Below, piece by piece: positions 35,800 through 62,211 of a stretch of DNA of 64,000 bases. The notes under the pieces are model-generated. The model ran no database searches and was not told where the DNA came from. It worked only from the letters and a program-made list of their open reading frames with translations. A program made the position numbers and the translations under genes. Every line of letters begins with the position of its first letter. Within the stretch, counting starts at the first letter, position 1. The DNA is from an uncultured Clostridia bacterium (GTDB lineage Bacteria > Bacillota > Clostridia > Christensenellales > UBA1242), in NCBI GenBank assembly GCA_934747385.1, contig CAKVGK010000002.1, positions 258,436-322,435 of the forward strand, given 5' to 3'.

Positions 35800-35958
35800 C
35801 TAAATCTCCTAAATTCAGTTAGATTATAAACAAATTTTGCAACTATGTCAAACGAAACAACCGCAAAAACTTAAACTAACTATTTTTAATTTAATAAATA
35901 ACTAAATTATTGCCCAAAAAGTTTATTTTAATTGTACTAAATTGATTTTAAACGAATA

Positions 35959-36480
35959 GATACACTCAATGCTAACGCATTTTGGTATGACAAACAGTCA
36001 TCCTGAGCGTAGTCGAAGGATCACTATACTTCGTTATAACTTAACTTTGAAACTTGAGATGTTTCGGCTCCGTTTCACTCAGCAAACATATGAACTCGTA
36101 AACTCGTTATTCATGTGTTTTGCTCCATTTGACTTCGCTCAACATGACAAAAGGAAAAAGATATACTCGCGATCGTCGGTATATGAGTTCGTAAACTCAC
36201 TGTTCATATACCGGCTATCGCTAGTTATATGAGTTCGCAAGCTCACTTTTCATATACCGGCTATCGCTAGTTATATGAGTTCGCAAGCTCACTTTTCATA
36301 TACCGGCTATCGCTCGGTATGACAGAATCTGGGGGTCTCCAACAAAGCAAAACGTAGTGGGTTCGTTGGGTGTTTGTCTTGAAAGGTTGTGTGAGTTAGT
36401 ATTCAATAATCCTTATGTCTTGTGTCCCCTTGAGAGGGGAAGGCTGGTAAAACGCTTGCGTTTTAACAAAGGGTAGTTTA
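35959..36480. repeat. Mosaic of hairpin repeat modules (region A) filling the secD-upstream intergenic region
   Basis: Contains GTCAT-stem-GAGCGNAGC-stem' hairpins in both orientations, a 3 x 46-bp tandem array, and segments shared with 53611-54215. Confidence 0.8.
36180..36317. repeat. Three tandem 46-bp units, each an imperfect palindrome
   Basis: TATATGAGTTCG(C/T)AA(G/A)CTCAC(T/G)TTTCATATACCGGCTATCGCT(AGT/CGG) starting at 36180, 36226 and 36272. Confidence 0.9.
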
Positions 36481-36533
36481 TTTAAGTCCTCTTATACATT
36501 TGGCTTTACTGCTGCTTGTTGTTGAACCTATCT

Positions 36534-47166: not shown

Positions 47167-47247
47167 AGCAAAAAAGTTGGCGTTTAAACCAACTTCTCTC
47201 CACTATGCTTTCTTTGCTGTTTCTACAAGTTTTGCAAATGCTTCTTA
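47167..47247. repeat. Duplicate of the rplT 3' coding end plus its terminator
   Basis: About 81 nt nearly identical to 47276-47357 (offset 109 nt). Includes the AAGTTGG/CCAACTT hairpin and the last ~45 nt of rplT. Confidence 0.9.
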
Positions 47248-47278
47248 ACCACTTCTCTTCGTTCGTGGGAAAGGAAGC

Positions 47279-47304
47279 AAAAAAGTTGGCGTTTAAACCA
47301 ACTT
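47279..47304 (-). terminator. Intrinsic terminator of the infC-rpmI-rplT operon
   Basis: Minus-strand AAGTTGG TTTAAACG CCAACTT followed by a T-run, 8 nt after the rplT stop. Confidence 0.75.
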
Positions 47305-47311
47305 CTCTTCA

Positions 47312-47659
47312 CTATGCTTTCTTTGCTGTTTCTACAAGTTTTGCAAATGCTTCCTTATCGCAAACTGCCATATCAGCCAAAACCTTGCGGTTAAGGTCGA
47401 TATTTGCTTTTTTCAAGCCAGCAATAAATTTGCTGTAAGAAATTGCGTTTTCACGACAAGCAGCGTTGATACGTGTAATCCATAATGAACGCATGTCACG
47501 TTTTTTCAACTTGCGACCAGTGTATGCGTATTGACCGGATTTCATAACAGCTTGACGAGCAACACGATACAATTTTGATTTAGCACCACGATAGCCTTTT
47601 GCATCTTTCAATACTGCACGGCGTTTTTTTGATGCGTTAACACCACGTTTAATTCTCAT
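47312..47659 (-). CDS. rplT: 50S ribosomal protein L20
   Basis: [15 protein letters not shown]-terminus and the length match L20. Confidence 0.97.
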
Positions 47660-50371: not shown

Positions 50372-52141
50372 TTAGCCATGAGTTTTGATTTCATTTAAAA
50401 TCAAACTTTCAAAATCGGCATAATTCATTGTTTCGGTGTCTTTGCTGCCGCGGCGACGCACTGCAACAGTTCCGTCTTCCATTTCTTTATCGCCAAGCAC
50501 AAGAATATAAGGCACTTTTTCAAGCACTGCGTTGCGGATTTTTTTGCCAACAGATTCATTTTCAACGTCTGCTTCTGCCCTTATGCCTGCCACGCAAAGT
50601 TGACGGGTGATTTTTTGGGCATATTCAGCGTTGTTTTCGCTTACTGTGATGATTTTTGTTTGAACTGGGCTAAGCCAAGTTGGCAAAACACCCTTTGTTT
50701 CTTCCAAAACGAAAGCGGTGAACCTGTCAAGTGAGCCAAGAATTGCGCGATGAATAACAACTGGGCGAACTTTTTGATTGTTTTCGTCGATATATTCAAG
50801 TTCAAACCTTTCTGGCAATTGATAATCCAATTGAACGGTTGAAAGTGTAATTTCGTGCCCGATTGCACTTTTAACTTGAACGTCAATTTTTGGACCATAG
50901 AACGCTGCTTCGCCAACTGCTTCATAGTAGTTTGCACCGCTAGATTTTAAAATGTCACGCAAGGCAGATTCGCTCTTCTCCCAAAGTTCGTCGTTACCAA
51001 AATATTTTTCAGTATTCTTAGGGTCACGCAAGGACAAACGGAATTGATAGTTTTTAAAGCCAAAGTCCTTATACACGTCCAAAATAAGGTCAATAACCCC
51101 TTGAATTTCACTTTTGATTTGGTCTGGACGGCAGAAAATGTGGCAGTCATTTTGAGTGAGAGCGCGCACGCGTTCCAAGCCAACCAAAGTGCCACTTGCC
51201 TCGTACCTAAAATCGTTTGCAATTTCTGCAATGCGCAATGGCAAATCGCGATATGAGTGCTGAAATTGTTTGTAAATAACCATGTGGTGTGGGCAGTTCA
51301 TTGGGCGCAAAACATAGCCCTCGTCCTCCACTTTCATGGCTGGGAACATACATTCTTGATAATGGTCCCAGTGACCAGAGGTTTTGTAAAGGTTGATATT
51401 GCCCAAAGATGGCGTCATAACATGTTGATAGCCTAAAGCAATTTCTTTATTCATAATGTAATCACTCAGTTCACGACGCAAAGTAAAGCCCTTTGGCAAC
51501 CAAATTGGAAGACCACGACCAACAAGTTCGTTGAACATAAATATGCCCAAATCTTTGCCTATTTTGCGGTGGTCGCGCTCGCGTGCTTCTTGCTCCAAAC
51601 GCAAGCACTCTTTCAAATCGTCCTTATTCAAAAAGCCATACACATACACACGGGTGAGCATTTTGTTCTTTTCGCTGCCACGCCAGTATGCGCCACTTGC
51701 ACGATTAATTTTGAAACTGAAACCACGCAAAAATTTGGTGTTTTCAACGTGTGGGCCACGGCACAAATCATAGAAATCATTGCCAGTGTGATAAACGGAA
51801 ATAATGCTATCTTCTGGCAAATCGTTGATAAGTTCAGTTTTATATGGTTCGTCTTTGAACATTTCAAGGGCTTGAGCGCGGGTCACTTCGCTACGCACAA
51901 AATCTTCGTTGCGAGCGATAATTTCCTTCATTTTGTCCTCAATTTTGGCAAAATCGTCTTGATTTATTGTTAAATTGTCAAAATCATAGTAAAAACCATT
52001 TTCAATAGCAGGCCCAATTGCAAGTTTTACGTTTGGGTATAACTCTTTTATTGCCTTTGCAAGCACGTGTGCCATGCTGTGGCGGTACATTTCTTGCTTT
52101 TGATTGAATTCTTCTTGTTTTTCAAGTTCTTCTTTTTCCAT
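50372..52141 (-). CDS. thrS: Threonine--tRNA ligase
   Basis: Editing-site HSMAHVLA, class II motifs (FRYE..G.L.GL.RVR, GFGLERL-like) and a C-terminal anticodon-binding domain. Start at ATG 52141 after AAGGAG. The upstream in-frame extension is repeat-derived. Confidence 0.95.
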   Translation of the reverse strand: MEKEELEKQEEFNQKQEMYRHSMAHVLAKAIKELYPNVKLAIGPAIENGFYYDFDNLTINQDDFAKIEDKMKEIIARNEDFVRSEVTRAQALEMFKDEPYKTELINDLPEDSIISVYHTGNDFYDLCRGPHVENTKFLRGFSFKINRASGAYWRGSEKNKMLTRVYVYGFLNKDDLKECLRLEQEARERDHRKIGKDLGIFMFNELVGRGLPIWLPKGFTLRRELSDYIMNKEIALGYQHVMTPSLGNINLYKTSGHWDHYQECMFPAMKVEDEGYVLRPMNCPHHMVIYKQFQHSYRDLPLRIAEIANDFRYEASGTLVGLERVRALTQNDCHIFCRPDQIKSEIQGVIDLILDVYKDFGFKNYQFRLSLRDPKNTEKYFGNDELWEKSESALRDILKSSGANYYEAVGEAAFYGPKIDVQVKSAIGHEITLSTVQLDYQLPERFELEYIDENNQKVRPVVIHRAILGSLDRFTAFVLEETKGVLPTWLSPVQTKIITVSENNAEYAQKITRQLCVAGIRAEADVENESVGKKIRNAVLEKVPYILVLGDKEMEDGTVAVRRRGSKDTETMNYADFESLILNEIKTHG

Positions 52142-52145
52142 AATA

Positions 52146-52334
52146 TTCTCCTTTTTGATTGGTAATTGCTTGCAAATTAGCAAGCGAAAAGAGAATTTTA
52201 TATCGCCTAGATATAATTTCCCTTTTTGATTGATGAATGCTTGCATTTCAGCAAGCGGAAAGAGAATTTTATATCGCTTTTAGATATAATTTCTCCTTTT
52301 AATAAGGTGATTTTTATATCGTCTTTAGATATGC
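52146..52334 (-). repeat. About 2.6 tandem copies of a 71-74-nt unit in the thrS 5' UTR
   Basis: Each unit carries an SD-like AAAAGGAGAA/AAAAAGGGAA, an ATATC-loop-GATAT hairpin (3 copies) and a GCTTGC-loop-GCAAGC hairpin (2 copies). Confidence 0.9.
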
Positions 52335-52430
52335 ATTCACCTTTTGCTGGGTGGCTCAATTTTCCTTTAAACATGTTTGCCAACTGGGCTAAATTTAACA
52401 ATTTTATAGTGGTTTTGTTAAATAATGTTT

Positions 52431-52657
52431 AAAAACAAAAAACCCTAGCATTTTGTTATGCTAGGGACGATTTTAACCGCGGTTCCACCCTAATTAGTGA
52501 CAAAGTCACTCACTTGATTTGCAAGCATTCACTTGCGTTTGGCCTAATCGGTGGTTTCACTTAAAAGTTTGATGCGCAAATTCCAGCCAGCATGCGCTCT
52601 CTCTTATCATTGACTTTTAACCTACTTGTCCAATCAATAACCTATTGAGTTAACAAT
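52431..52657 (-). promoter_or_regulatory. T-box riboswitch leader (threonine specifier ACC proposed) with terminator
   Basis: Minus strand carries an AGAGAG box, GAA-ACC-A in the putative specifier loop, the T-box sequence AATTAGGGTGGAACCGCGG (52477-52495), and the terminator CCCTAGCAT...ATGCTAGGG with a T-run (52431-52466). Confidence 0.85.
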
Positions 52658-52704: not shown

Positions 52705-53499
52705 TTAGCATTTTGTGTAAACTTTCAAGCGATTGGAAAAAATGTTGCTTAAAAAACTTACTGCCTCGTACTCTTGGTTTGTATTCAAATATACGTCAAT
52801 GTAATTTGGACAAGAATTTAACACGTTTGTGATAAAGTCAACAGAGTCGTCACATTCGGCAATCTTTTTTATTTTTGCGTTTTTGTTTTTCATGTTGTAA
52901 ATACAATAATGGTCGTCCTTTATAACCACTTTGATTTTGTAAACCAAATTGTCCATGGTGTTGATTAAAAACCTAATAACGTCCAAAAACGTGCCAGAAT
53001 TGAAAAGCATAATGTTGTCGCTGCTGAGTTCGGCAAGATTGTCCCAATGCTTTTTAAGCGGACTTAAGCGAAAAGACAAAAAAGAATCTAAATGCAGCGT
53101 GTCGCTTACGGAAACCATTTCGCCTGTTGAGTTTAAAAAATTTTGATTAAAATTCAAAATGTTCTTTAGCGCTTGCTCGTCAGTGGTTTTGTCAAAAAGT
53201 GCAAGCACTTTTATGTAAGCACTGAAAGTTAATTTGTCACAAAGCGGATTTTTTATTTTTTGTGTTAGATAATCAACCTTGTAAACAGTTTCAATATATT
53301 CAACAATAATATCTCTTAAAATTTCCTCACAGGGAGAAACAAAAGTCTCATCACACGCAAAAAGAAGATATGAAAAATTATTGTCGTCATAGCAAGTTAA
53401 TATAGTTTTGCAAAAATCTATTTTCGCTTTAACATTCGCATATAAAAACTCAATTATTCCCTTATTTTTCAGTTGAGTGGCCAATGCTATCTCTCGCAT
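52705..53499 (-). CDS. ytxC: YtxC-like putative sporulation protein
   Basis: Lies immediately upstream of thrS, as ytxC does in Bacillus, and is of similar size. Start chosen at ATG 53499 after AGAGGT; the ORF track extends to 53580. Confidence 0.5.
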   Translation of the reverse strand: MREIALATQLKNKGIIEFLYANVKAKIDFCKTILTCYDDNNFSYLLFACDETFVSPCEEILRDIIVEYIETVYKVDYLTQKIKNPLCDKLTFSAYIKVLALFDKTTDEQALKNILNFNQNFLNSTGEMVSVSDTLHLDSFLSFRLSPLKKHWDNLAELSSDNIMLFNSGTFLDVIRFLINTMDNLVYKIKVVIKDDHYCIYNMKNKNAKIKKIAECDDSVDFITNVLNSCPNYIDVYLNTNQEYEAVSFLSNIFSNRLKVYTKC

Positions 53500-53610
53500 A
53501 TTTACCTCTATACTATCATATGCACAATGTTTAAATTTACTCATAAAAAAAATGTAATTAAATGCCAAAATTTGCGGCACACAAATTGACGAATCTAAAT
53601 TCTTTTTAAA

Positions 53611-54215
53611 GATACACTTGTTATTTTCAACAACTCGGTATGACAGAACAACGGGGTCCCCGACAAAGCCTAATGAAATGGGTTTGTTGGGGTTAAGGAA
53701 AAACCGAGCAACAGGTGAGCATTTGCGATTAGCAAACCCGCAAAAGCGAGAGTTTTGACGTTGTCATCCTGAGCGATAACCGGTATATGAAGAGTGAGCC
53801 TGTGAACTCATTTAACCAGCGATAGCGAGAGTATCTTAAAAAATATGTAATTTAACAAATTGTTTGGTTTTTCATATGCTGAATTAAGGAAGAAGACTAT
53901 GTACTACTTTTATTTCAAATCTGGCTGCTATGATTTTGTTAATGTAAGCAATTTAAGTTTGTCACTTTCCAGCACAATATATGGCAATTACAACGAATGC
54001 AACTGCACTTGTTTTGACTGGAGTGCGCCTTATCGTTGCCGCATTGGCACTGCCATAAACAACACTTTGCAACCTTTGTAATAACACAAATAATTTTGTT
54101 AAACAAACTACCCTTTGGTGCTCATTCCATTCACACCAACCTTTCCCTTACAAGGGAACACGAGATTGGTGGACTATTTGAAAAAAATACACTCGGCATA
54201 AAGCCTCGGTATGAC
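53611..54215. repeat. Mosaic of hairpin repeat modules (region B), related to 35959-36480
   Basis: Shares GGTATGAC-terminated modules, an R1 hairpin segment (53645-53697, similar to 36324-36372), one 46-mer-like unit in the opposite orientation (53763-53835) and an inverted R2 segment (54105-54170, similar to the reverse complement of 36415-36480). Confidence 0.8.
53899..54081 (+). CDS. Possible 60-aa small protein rich in Cys, Tyr and Asn
   Basis: ATG preceded by AAGGAAG at 6-nt spacing. Sequence MYYFYFKSGCYDFVNV...NECNCTCFDWSAPYRCRIG. Lies alone on the plus strand inside repeat region B. No homology evidence. Confidence 0.3.
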   Translation: MYYFYFKSGCYDFVNVSNLSLSLSSTIYGNYNECNCTCFDWSAPYRCRIGTAINNTLQPL

Positions 54216-54298
54216 ACGCTTATTCGTTAGTTCGGTCACATAATATGAAAAAACACCACTAATGTGGTGTTTTATGTATAAATCTAGTTAGTCTAGGT

Positions 54299-54883: not shown

Positions 54884-55107
54884 TTATACCTCCTTATTGT
54901 CAGTTTAACAAATGTTGACAGATAAGTCTAACAATTTTTAACAAGTTTTTTTAAATTTTTTTAAAAAATTTTAAATTTGGCAAAATATCGACTAATTTTG
55001 CCTTAAATTTAGCACTCATAAAAAATTTAAACTGCTAGCAGTCACATTTGCTTTGACATAACCACATAGATTTTATATGCCAAAAAACAAAAAATGTTTA
55101 AATAAAA

Positions 55108-60455: not shown

Positions 60456-60953
60456 CTAATCTTGATCCAAAGATAAATCATTGTTTTCCATTCTGTTTAA
60501 TTCTTGTTCAAATTTAGAAAAAATCGAATTTGGAATATCCAATTTAACAATAGCATCACATTCTTTTATTTGCTTGTTTTTTAATTTTTGATTTAAAGAT
60601 TTTAAATCCTCCAAATTATATTTTTCAAAAACTATAAAAGCATCTTTGTTAGCCATCACAAATTGAAAGAACTGAAAACTTGGTAAATTTTTCCAGTTTG
60701 AAACAATGTTGGTTTTTAGATGAATTTGATTAACCTTGTCATTATAATTTTTGATTTTGGATAAAACATTTTCACTCAATGAAAAATCAAAATTTTCCGA
60801 CCCAATATTTTTAACAAAATTCAAATCGCTTTCAATTGTATGCAAAAAATATTCAATAAACACATTAAATTCATTAACTTTTGCTTTAGTTAAAATTTTT
60901 CTTGCATTAGAATACAATCTTTCATTCTTCATCATAATTCCTTCCTTACTCAT
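60456..60953 (-). CDS. Hypothetical 165-aa protein, translationally coupled to the upstream kinase-like gene
   Basis: Its ATG overlaps the stop of the 421-aa ORF (ATGAGTAA). Rich in N, K, E and F with an acidic C-terminus. No motif recognised. Confidence 0.55.
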   Translation of the reverse strand: MSKEGIMMKNERLYSNARKILTKAKVNEFNVFIEYFLHTIESDLNFVKNIGSENFDFSLSENVLSKIKNYNDKVNQIHLKTNIVSNWKNLPSFQFFQFVMANKDAFIVFEKYNLEDLKSLNQKLKNKQIKECDAIVKLDIPNSIFSKFEQELNRMENNDLSLDQD

Positions 60954-62211
60954 TATTTATAATCGACTCAACCCCAACATTTGTATGTTGTTCAATTATA
61001 TGGGCCATATTATTAATTGCTTCAATATATTTTTCATCATTCAAAATTTGAGTGCAATTTTTACTTACCATTTTTTCATCAAATTTCATTCCTGGCACAC
61101 GATATGTAACAGCAGGACTCATTATTTTTGTTGACAATTGATTTGTTAGTTTCATTAACATTTCTTTATCTTTTTTAGACAAACCCTGGCTTTTCAAATA
61201 GTTAATGTCAACATCATTCTTTTTAAGTTGTTGCATCAACAAATTTGTCACTTGTTTTTTTATCTCTTTATTTATGCTCTGTCCTTGTTGGAAATATTCT
61301 AACAACTCCTCATTTGAATGAGCATGCAAAGAAAGTGAAATCATTTCTTGCGGTGGCATTCTCATTCCAAGACTTTCGGCAGAAAGGTCAGAATTATAAC
61401 TTTTGCAAATATCTAGCTTTTCTGCACAATTGTTAATTAAATAAAGATAAGTCATTAATGGTTTGTTACCACATTCTTCTAACGCTTCATATTCAACCAA
61501 CCTAGGAATTTCATTCTTTGCTATTTTCTTTAAACACCTATTGGAATTACGGACTTGACAAACTTTTATATCTGCATGAACCAAACTTACATTAATTCTG
61601 CTTGCTGTTTTTGAGTATTTATCAATTAATTTTTCCATTTTTTCGGGATTATCGCCTATTTTTTCTTGAATAAAATTAATTTTATTTTCTAATAATGCTC
61701 CAATCATATAGTTTTTCATCACAACACCAGACATAGCATGCATTAATGGATGATTTATATTTACATTATAATGCTTTGCCAATTGCTCTTTTATCCAATC
61801 TTGATCTGCATGATAGGCACCTTCATTCTGTTTTATAGATTCAATAATTGTAGACTTGCCTGCTGCTGGTGGACCTAAAACAAATGAAACAGATCCATCT
61901 TTTCCTATTGCTGGATTATCTAATTGTTCTTGAACGACTCTTGAAACTAAATTTTTGGCGAATTCTTCAAATTCTTTATTTATATTTGGAGAAGTATTAT
62001 TTGAATGCGAAAGAATAGCTTTGGCCAAGTGGTCAAATTCTTGTTCTTTTTTAGAATCTACAGAAGACAATATTTCTTTTGTTCTATTTTCAGCTTTAAC
62101 TTTAGTTTCGTTATAGAATTGCTCAATTTCTTCTATTGTTTTTGAGTTTGAAGAACTAGCAGCAATCCAACAATCAGGTGGTTGCAAACCATTCAAATAA
62201 TTATTATCCAA
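60946..62211 (-). CDS. Zeta-toxin-like / AAA_33-type P-loop kinase domain protein with long N- and C-terminal extensions
   Basis: Walker A LGPPAAGKSTII, followed by YHADQDWIKEQ, resembles the zeta/PezT arrangement (P-loop then an Asp-containing strand). TTG start 5 nt after GAGGTG. No other domain recognised. Confidence 0.6.
   Translation of the reverse strand: MDNNYLNGLQPPDCWIAASSSNSKTIEEIEQFYNETKVKAENRTKEILSSVDSKKEQEFDHLAKAILSHSNNTSPNINKEFEEFAKNLVSRVVQEQLDNPAIGKDGSVSFVLGPPAAGKSTIIESIKQNEGAYHADQDWIKEQLAKHYNVNINHPLMHAMSGVVMKNYMIGALLENKINFIQEKIGDNPEKMEKLIDKYSKTASRINVSLVHADIKVCQVRNSNRCLKKIAKNEIPRLVEYEALEECGNKPLMTYLYLINNCAEKLDICKSYNSDLSAESLGMRMPPQEMISLSLHAHSNEELLEYFQQGQSINKEIKKQVTNLLMQQLKKNDVDINYLKSQGLSKKDKEMLMKLTNQLSTKIMSPAVTYRVPGMKFDEKMVSKNCTQILNDEKYIEAINNMAHIIEQHTNVGVESIINNE

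Follow-up and report, generated by a model that had tools for sequence, protein, structure and literature searches.

The 64-kb stretch of contig CAKVGK010000002.1 analysed here (the window) is chromosomal DNA of a spore-forming member of the Clostridia with low G+C content (~35%), carrying spoVA, sigF-type and ytfJ genes and the gene order ytxC, T-box, thrS. Its proteins are matched exactly in gut-type metagenome assemblies (ENA ERZ27287290 and Logan ERR7738661), and the relatives found via YtxC are Clostridia metagenome-assembled genomes (MAGs), one of them labelled Candidatus Onthoplasma. Two intergenic regions are considered in detail. Region A (35800-36533) extends from a DUF3792 gene to a gene for a 437-aa protein, and region B (53545-54298) from a gene for a 194-aa protein to ytxC; all four genes lie on the minus strand. 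Both regions contain a short hairpin module whose ends are constant and whose central stem is not, and the modules serve as units in two intergenic mosaic blocks (35959-36479 and 53611-54215), where they occur in both orientations. On balance, we favour the view that they form a mobile mosaic family of repeats resembling repetitive extragenic palindromes (REPs).

Searching the window for GTCATACC-N(8-30)-AGTGTAT gave exactly three matches, each of them minus-strand (35960-35991, 53612-53644 and 54187-54215), and 100 dinucleotide-preserving shuffles of the same DNA gave none. Orthologous loci (L numbers) were fetched via YtxC and the 437-aa protein. Those of a sister species with a YtxC 86% identical (L140-L145) hold four more modules, whose flanks are as in the window and whose hairpin centres are different (Table 1). 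The three mini-hairpins of the window are real, and their fold is kept while their stems change. This bears out the initial annotation of the window, which had reported three minus-strand modules with the same ends around different mini-hairpins. The stems it gave, AATGC/GCATT, TTGTT/AACAA and GGC/GCC, are as described, the second being better drawn as GTTGTT/AATAAC with one G.T pair. It had also proposed that ATAC and GTAT in the flanks close the structure, and RNAfold indeed pairs ATACC with G-GTAT around a bulged T.

Table 1 Units of the two mosaic blocks and modules of the sister species
Feature	Positions	Strand	Make-up	Covariance model score (bits)
Module copy 1 (w1)	35959-35991	minus	tGTC-ATACC-AA-[AATGC GTTA GCATT]-GA-GTGTATC	48
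Module copy 2 (w2)	53611-53644	minus	tGTC-ATACC-GA-[GTTGTT GAA AATAAC]-AA-GTGTATC	54
Module copy 3 (w3)	54186-54215	minus	tGTC-ATACC-GA-[GGC TTTAT GCC]-GA-GTGTAT-T7	45
Sister-species module			GTCATACC-GA-ACGAGCGAAAGCGAAGT-GA-GTGTATC	
Sister-species module			GTCATACC-GA-AAACGCAAGCGTTT-GA-GTGTATC	
Sister-species module			GTCATACC-GA-GATGTTGAAAACATC-GA-GTGTATC	
Sister-species module			GTTATATC-GA-GAACACGAAAGTGCTC-GA-GTGTATC	
Variant inverted unit	35997-36024	plus	GTCATCCTGAGCGTAGTCGAAGGATCAC; head-to-head with copy 1, 5-nt spacer	
Array of units	36160-36323	minus	three array cores	
Array, first unit	within 36160-36323	minus	GTCATACC-GA-GC GATA GC-C-GGTATATG	
Array, 46-nt units	within 36160-36323	minus	CATATAAC..GGTATATG plus second GA-type hairpin AGT-GA-G(CTTG)C-GA-ACT	
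Array, closing unit	within 36160-36323	minus	CATATACC-GA-CGATCG-CG-AGTATATC	
R1 hairpin	36331-36370	minus	CCCAAC...GTTGG(AG)ACCCCC, then AGATTCT, then array GTCATACC	
R1 hairpin	53653-53692	minus	CCCCAAC...GTCGGGG-ACCCC, then GTTGTTCT, then module copy 2	
R3-X-R2 unit	36422-36479	minus	R3 = AAACTACCCTTTG; X = variable hairpin GTTAAAACGC AA GCGTTTTAC; R2 = CCTT-CCCCT CTCA AGGGG-ACAC	
R3-X-R2 unit	54105-54161	plus	inverted relative to 36422-36479; X hairpin TTGGTG...CACCAA; R2 stem TCCCT/AGGGA	
Two-unit inverted array	53762-53835	plus	tGTCATCCT-GA-GCGATAAC-C-GGTATATG, AAGAGTGAGCCTGTGAACT, then CATTTAAC-CA-GCGATAGC-GA-GAGTATC	
Composite element, ~225 nt	53611-53835		inverted array, ~70-nt linker, R1, direct module	

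The consensus of the module is (T/C)GTC-ATACC-GA-[3-6 bp helix plus loop]-GA-G(T)GTAT-C-T-rich, a unit of ~33 nt. RNAfold gives a single shape for all seven distinct modules, in which the five pairs of ATACC/G-GTAT with their bulged T are followed by a 2x2 GA/GA loop and then by a variable helix of 3-6 pairs. The first two pairs of the stem are A-T and T-A in every module, and the GA/GA zone sits in a C-GA-G context. An unpaired tag lies 5' of the stem. In the MAFFT alignment it reads TGTC in five of the seven modules, CGTC in one (module c of L141) and TGTT in one (module d of L141), and TGTC is also found 5' of the array units at 36323 and 53762. The loops are 3-5 nt long, with GAAA in three modules and GTTA and CAAG in others. 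The tail consists of a C, replaced by T in copy 3, and then TTT or TAT, and seven T residues follow copy 3 and module a of L141. The stems are A/T-rich and weak, with folding energies from -4.5 to -8.8 kcal/mol.

The variable centres pair more than shuffled ones do. Counted inward from the flanks, the seven modules form 29 contiguous pairs; in 20,000 shuffles this count averaged 4.2 and never exceeded 17. In the MAFFT alignment, double changes occur at each of the three alignable upper-helix pairs that adjoin the GA/GA loop (8 cells), a result matched by none of 500 shuffles. Of the upper-helix cells, 96% are paired, and sliding the partner column gives 9-80%. Copy 2 and module c of L141 have related centres, an A-T pair being swapped to T-A and a G-C pair changed to G.T between them. 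A covariance model was built from the seven distinct modules and used to search the window and 16 related loci, 215 kb together. It recovered only these modules and their strain variants, with one further marginal match that is the closing unit of the array. In these 215 kb of related DNA, the family is confined to the organism of the window and one sister species.

Complementary stem changes might also arise without selection, if intrastrand template switching during replication homogenised the arms of quasi-palindromes in old, non-functional remnants. The A-T to T-A swap between copy 2 and module c is feasible by one such event, and the entire mosaic is composed of short palindromes. Yet it does not account for flanks of 8-10 nt, with their unpaired positions, bulged T and GA/GA loop, that are identical across both species next to intergenic DNA that has diverged, and imperfections in the stems (G.T, A.C) persist. 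We consider this explanation very unlikely. The initial annotation had taken the structure-preserving stems as a sign of selection on a folded RNA or single-stranded DNA, and not just of recent duplication. A structural constraint is indeed present, and the modules are not plain recent duplicates. However, a conserved tag with alternative complementary stems has been published for REP families (PMC3733652). Mobile palindromes that are read as folded single strands should show it, so that covariation alone does not demonstrate an RNA function.

Self-comparison of the window showed that regions A and B have common blocks whose order and orientation differ. Besides the modules, the units are a 46-nt tandem array, an R1 hairpin, an R3-hairpin-R2 unit and inverted copies. 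The two R1 copies, 79% identical over 58 nt, maintain their pairing as the initial annotation had proposed, and they have a common junction in which R1 is followed by (A/G)TTNTTCT-GTCATACC. The same holds for the pairing of R2 (36422-36443 and 54140-54161), where the flanks CCTT...ACAC are kept and the outermost stem pair changes from C-G to T-A; the opposite orientation of its two copies had been overlooked. Throughout the R3-X-R2 unit, AAACTACCCTTTG-[hairpin]-CCTT-[hairpin]-ACAC, both hairpins differ between copies and the linkers are the same. A fourth GTCATACC (36316-36323, minus strand) starts a related hairpin, GTCATACC-GA-GCGATAGC-C-GGTATATG, which is the first unit of the 46-nt tandem array. 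In the window this array has three cores, one more than in another assembly of the organism (ERZ27287290, two cores), a difference that may be real variation or assembly collapse. As the array units hold a second GA-type hairpin, one design recurs across the mosaic, in which linkers are conserved, small helices can be exchanged and a tandem 5'-GA/GA-3' zone is present. Region B repeats part of the array in inverted form, a 65-nt stretch at 53762-53826 being 88% identical to 36260-36324, and GTCATCCTGAGCG at 35997 recurs at 53763-53775.

Some of these units are assembled into composites of ~225-250 nt, made up of an inverted module, a linker, R1 and a direct module, at loci that differ between the two species. 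The composite of the window has the two-unit inverted array as its left end and module copy 2 as its right end. In that of L141 (2497-2745), modules d and c in inverted orientation are joined by a linker, R1 and module a in direct orientation. Units stand head-to-head with their tag ends facing in three places, with spacers of 5 to ~130 nt (35997-36024 with 35959-35991, 53762-53835 with 53611-53644, and 2549-2582 with 2708-2743 of L141), while copy 3 and module b of L141 are solo. For the window composite, the folding z-scores of the two strands are -1.6 and -3.5; the L141 composite, whose outer modules d and a pair over ~43 nt, has -6.4.

Such pairing of outer modules, together with the z-score of the whole L141 element, would suit an ordinary MITE (a miniature transposable element with inverted repeats). 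The ~225-250-nt composite would then be moved as double-stranded DNA by a DDE transposase via (AAA)GATACACTCG...CGAGTGTATC(TTT) inverted repeats, solo modules being decayed half-elements and the hairpin character a by-product. The ends of the window composite match (GATACTCTC...AGTGTATC) with TTTAA on both sides, and the elements, which lie between genes, are rich in A/T and under 300 bp long, in keeping with the MITE criteria in PMC3049150. On the other hand, centres are unrelated between the two ends of a single composite, and folding of the window composite is weak. Either end forms a hairpin by itself, with conserved unpaired positions and asymmetric flanks, neither of which a double-strand binding site needs, and there are more solo modules than composites. 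In DNA this rich in A/T the TTTAA duplication carries no significance, and it has no counterpart in L141; no insertion sequence (IS) was seen in the window or 10 kb on each side. We regard a MITE of this kind as quite unlikely. If a DDE-type IS with AAAGATACACTCG terminal inverted repeats were behind the composites, the mobility would stay and the single-strand mechanism proposed below would fall. The initial annotation had itself raised the prospect that the copies are fragments of a known IS or MITE with ordinary terminal repeats. The modules do act as terminal inverted repeats of the composite, but no known IS or MITE was matched.

Every composite or mosaic block has an empty orthologous site in close relatives. 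The repeat content of region A (~520 nt, 35959-36479) is absent in L152, L153 and L155, in which the 437-aa protein is 83-84% identical; their intergenic region is 216-233 nt long, with an adjoining promoter block ~90% identical. The composite of region B is absent in L139 (YtxC 90% identical), L141 (86%), L129 (82%) and L133. Reciprocally, the L141 composite adjoins a methyltransferase gene and a gene for a 202-aa protein, and the equivalent site of the window (54884-55107) is 224 nt long and has no repeat. Downstream of the gene for the 194/202-aa protein, both species have a module with identical flanks and unrelated centres (GGCTTTATGCC versus AAACGCAAGCGTTT). In keeping with multi-copy DNA, short-read contigs break at the blocks: L002 ends at window position 36455, and L142 and L143 start inside repeats. 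L154 starts ~130 nt upstream of the gene adjoining the 35959-36479 block. The 84 kb inspected of this genome hold two repeat blocks, with none in the extra 20 kb (10 kb on each side of the window). We infer that mobility is the cause of this presence and absence.

The same comparison bears on whether the hairpins act as RNA. A free-standing conserved RNA does not agree with mosaic units that occur in both orientations and are missing at orthologous sites where the flanking proteins are 82-90% identical. The hairpins could instead be cis-acting structured RNAs under selection, serving as a weak intrinsic terminator or insulator, as a 3'-end stabiliser against exonucleases, or as the site of an RNA-binding protein that reads the tandem G.A zone, with the repetition reflecting recruitment of a useful motif. 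The covarying upper helix and the tetraloop-type loops (GAAA, GTTA and CAAG) are consistent with this, and so is the tandem GA, since a 5'-CGAG-3' context favours sheared tandem GA pairs in RNA. Every module is followed by C and a T-rich tract, which reaches seven T after copy 3 and module a of L141. In addition, GTCATACC reads on the coding strand of the flanking genes in all three window modules and in the 36160-36323 array, and no separate terminator was predicted downstream of the DUF3792 gene, whose transcript may run into the mosaic.

The position of the units relative to transcripts argues otherwise. The composite blocks fall between transcription units. A perfect TTGACA-17-TATAAT promoter (35823-35851) of the gene for the 437-aa protein has copy 1 on its upstream side, and a promoter-like site (53852-53880) for a small plus-strand gene has the inverted array just upstream of it. 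Copy 3 lies beyond the strong terminator hairpin (54250-54273) that the gene for the 194-aa protein already has. Because the composites are upstream of the promoters of the downstream genes and copy 3 is past a terminator, no module is clearly inside a defined transcript. Modules c and d of L141 are antisense to both neighbour genes. Mismatches pick no strand either, as they are split 2:2: copy 2 and a strain variant of module c in L144 have G.T on the GTCATACC strand, and module d of L141 and R1 at 53653-53692 have A.C there. The weakness of the A/T-rich stems also speaks against an RNA element. We place selected RNA hairpins on the unlikely side. The modules do not appear to be a regulatory RNA of ytxC, thrS or neighbour genes, and a selected RNA function finds little support in their location or conservation. 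By analogy with REP and BOX, an RNA role could exist alongside mobility.

The module had not been assigned to any named RNA family, and no credible Rfam match was found. At the gathering score there was no match in the window, and with E up to 10 the overlaps with modules in the two regions were evidently due to chance (a rimP leader with 27 bits against a gathering score of 47, and microRNA models). The T-box at 52460-52646 has no relation to the modules. We also compared the module with other structured elements. A hammerhead ribozyme was rejected since GA-helix-GA is present but the CUGAUGA...GAAA core is not, a K-turn for having no 3-nt bulge 5' of GA, and domain V of a group II intron for having no AGC triad. 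LexA, XerCD or dif-type sites and excision footprints were dropped on sequence grounds.

A small Cys-rich gene lies on the plus strand between copies 2 and 3 (53899-54081; 60 aa, MYYFYFKSGCYDFVN...CNCTCFDWSAPYRCRIGTAINN), antiparallel to its neighbours and preceded by an AAGGAAG ribosome-binding site. It is kept in four related species, has no Pfam match and is not called in the contig gene tables. A 25-codon open reading frame (ORF) at 53981-54058 was considered as a small toxin and rejected, as its ATG is not kept (ACG in L129) and the overlapping 60-codon frame is. Two direct copies around a 60-codon gene recall attC-like folded recombination sites that bound small gene cassettes, and the outline is alike: the outer helix is conserved and has an extrahelical base, a spacer is unpaired, and the terminal structure varies. 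However, the small gene occupies the same place in the module-free loci L129, L133 and L139 and has a single module beside it in L141. The modules have no GTTRRRY/RYYYAAC cores, and the sole tyrosine recombinase seen is outside the window, next to lexA. The attC-cassette reading is disfavoured and, in our estimate, extremely unlikely. This recombinase (Phage_integrase domain, 348 aa), the only one seen near the window, is ~2 kb outside its start, adjoins lexA and a PadR-domain gene (L149 6881-8608, ~1-3 kb ahead of the window), and has no evident link to the repeats.

Several other features of the window deserve mention. Next to region B, the start of ytxC (53545-53580 and 53497-53544, minus strand) is ambiguous. 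The mechanical ORF from a GTG has 291 aa and the ATG of the record (53544) gives 279 aa, and most YtxC homologues start at the MREIA ATG (53499) and have 250-264 aa; the DNA around ATGAGTAAATTT...GATAGTATAGAGGTA is highly conserved between species. A T-box leader 5' of thrS (52460-52646, minus strand) scores 80.5 bits (E = 3e-17), below the Rfam gathering score of 93, and is missed at default. A second, unrelated repeat family of ~71-76-nt tandem units (window 52140-52350, minus strand; L140 4003-4027; L141 5221-5320) follows the T-box terminator and precedes the true start of thrS (ATG near 52140). Each unit pairs a Shine-Dalgarno-like AAAGGAGAA with TTCTCTTT around TATATC..GATATA and has a GCTTGC..GCAAGC hairpin. 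The number of units varies by species and strain, with 2-3 in the window, two in L141 and one in L140, and a difference of 69 nt separates L129 from L130 here. These units lengthen the mechanical thrS ORF to 624 aa.

Directly downstream of ftsZ are genes for a 416/421-aa protein with a zeta-toxin-like kinase domain (60946-62211, minus strand) and a 165-aa partner (60456-60953, minus strand), possibly a toxin-antitoxin pair. The ERZ27250409 sample (L148 2864-3598) has other small genes after ftsZ, and for this reason we take the region to be a strain-variable insertion. The G+C content falls to 28% at 60-62 kb of the window. Finally, a 78-nt direct repeat (47167-47353; 99% identical, copies 109 nt apart) carries the terminator-like hairpin AAAAAGTTGGCGTTTAAACCAACTT and overlaps the 5' part of a 115-aa ORF (47312-47659, minus strand).

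Returning to the proposed mobile REP-like family, we suggest the following mechanism. The modules, together with R1, R3-hairpin-R2 and the 46-nt array units, build mosaic intergenic repeats similar to BIME, NIME and BOX, and within a single narrow lineage of uncultured gut Clostridia the family would spread or rearrange as non-autonomous DNA. The unit, folded as a single strand, would be recognised by an enzyme whose gene lies elsewhere in the genome. By analogy, this enzyme might be a tyrosine HUH transposase of the IS200/IS605-RAYT type, a class assignment that we offer tentatively and with low confidence. The tag, the lower stem and the GA zone would be read sequence-specifically and the upper stem as structure only, which could explain why the flanks are identical while the stems drift complementarily. 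The conservation pattern of the module is that of the substrate of the E. coli REP transposase, in which the tag and the bulge are essential and the upper half is non-specific (PMC8266576). It is unlikely, though conceivable, that the TGTC-tagged GA-zone hairpin is itself the recognition and cleavage substrate of an HUH-type or other single-strand enzyme in this lineage. Were it so, it would represent the first REPtron-like system in Firmicutes and the first enzyme for the CGTC/TGTC-tagged REP superfamily, and the enzyme would read the flanks and the tandem G.A zone and tolerate any upper stem.

A number of observations weigh against a mobile REP-like family. The module set comprises seven distinct modules from two species, and the presence and absence described above could result from differential loss and not from gain. 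The GAAA, GTTA and CAAG loops and the C-GA-G tandem motif would suit RNA too. No target-site duplication or clean insertion boundary was definable, because the flanks are A/T-rich and diverged. Neither the window nor 10 kb on each side holds a transposase of any class, so the association with Y1 transposases that the initial annotation had suggested looking for was not found there. CGTC-tagged REPs are themselves without a known transposase, and Firmicutes are not among the five phyla in which they were reported (PMC3733652).

More distant copies were also sought, as the initial annotation had advised. The sister species supplied its four modules, whereas exact-pattern scans of collections gave chance matches only. 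Two of these scans likewise tell against the proposed family, although neither used the module itself as query: the exact R1-module junction GACCCCNNNNTTCTGTCATACC had three chance matches in unrelated phyla among GTDB genomes, and the exact array core AGCGATARCCGGTATATGAA had three chance matches in coding DNA among JGI metagenomes. Viral contigs gave single chance matches only to an exact 15-base pattern, among the matches listed, and two chance matches in G+C-rich coding DNA to an exact 19-base pattern. A six-frame translation of the repeat blocks, used as a pseudo-protein query for spurious ORFs on other copies, had no match, and BLAST of the composite against plasmids and phages had none.

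If the REP-like interpretation is right, tagged palindromic mosaic repeats, known mostly from Proteobacteria, exist in uncultured gut Clostridia too. The contrast between invariant flanks and wholly replaceable upper stems marks the positions that a recognising enzyme or protein must read, and the module family would provide a handle for finding the mobilising enzyme of CGTC/TGTC-tagged repeats. The repeat blocks are also of practical concern for strain typing and MAG quality in this lineage, since short-read assemblies break at them and their unit number varies.

Among known systems, we compared the modules with the CGTC-tagged REPs, a superfamily that includes Neisseria dRS3 (CGTC-1 family) and Rickettsia RPE-4/-6 (Di Nocera et al. 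2013, PMC3733652). These REPs have an unpaired tag, often TGTC or CCTC, at one end of a palindrome with a stem of 8-9 bp and a loop of 4-5 nt, A-T at stem positions one and two, and a short unpaired tail that is mostly CCA. Their sub-families differ by alternative complementary stem residues, and they occur mostly as head-to-head dimers, in many copies scattered over the genome (PMC3733652). Our modules likewise have an unpaired TGTC or CGTC tag, an A-T start of the stem, alternative complementary stem residues and head-to-head dimers, the last in three places and beside solo units. They are also intergenic, species-restricted and variable between relatives, and have no dedicated transposase nearby. 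In contrast, their stem is interrupted by the GA/GA zone and the bulged T and is longer than 8-9 bp, the upper stem of 3-6 bp is wholly unrelated between copies, the tail is C with a T-run in place of CCA, the DNA is A/T-rich and the host belongs to the Clostridia.

The REPs and BIMEs associated with RAYT (TnpA-REP) in enterobacteria and pseudomonads offer a functional parallel. The E. coli REP transposase requires the 5' tag and the stem bulge of its substrate, whereas the hairpin's upper half serves as a structural element without specificity (PMC8266576). As in these repeats (PMC8266576, PMC3116915), the 5' tag and an irregular stem zone are conserved in our modules and the upper half is free, and a unit and its inverted copy surround a linker in tandem and mosaic arrangements. 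REP/REPIN-RAYT systems have a GTAG tag 5' of the palindrome and a single-copy RAYT (HUH Y1) gene with the repeats on its flanks. Here, no module has an adjacent GTAG, no RAYT gene was seen in the window or 10 kb on each side, the linker of ~130-190 nt including R1 is much longer than in BIMEs or REPINs, and the repeats are A/T-rich and not G+C-rich.

The pneumococcal BOX element, boxA-(boxB)n-boxC (PMC3049150), also has a Firmicute host and consists of end modules with a variable number of internal units of ~45 nt, compared with 46 nt here. Strain length differences, stem-loop folding and clustering with other repeats are further similarities (PMC3049150). The likeness drawn here is one of design. 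BOX has defined terminal inverted repeats and target duplications, whereas the end modules described here also occur as solo 33-nt hairpins with variable centres. Neisserial NIMEs are RS blocks flanked by dRS3. Although they come from another phylum and have other sequences, their block structure is similar, with short tagged inverted repeats placed among other blocks in variable order between genes. Set beside these systems, the modules represent a candidate new family, previously undescribed and tagged-REP-like, and not a proven member of the CGTC/TGTC superfamily.

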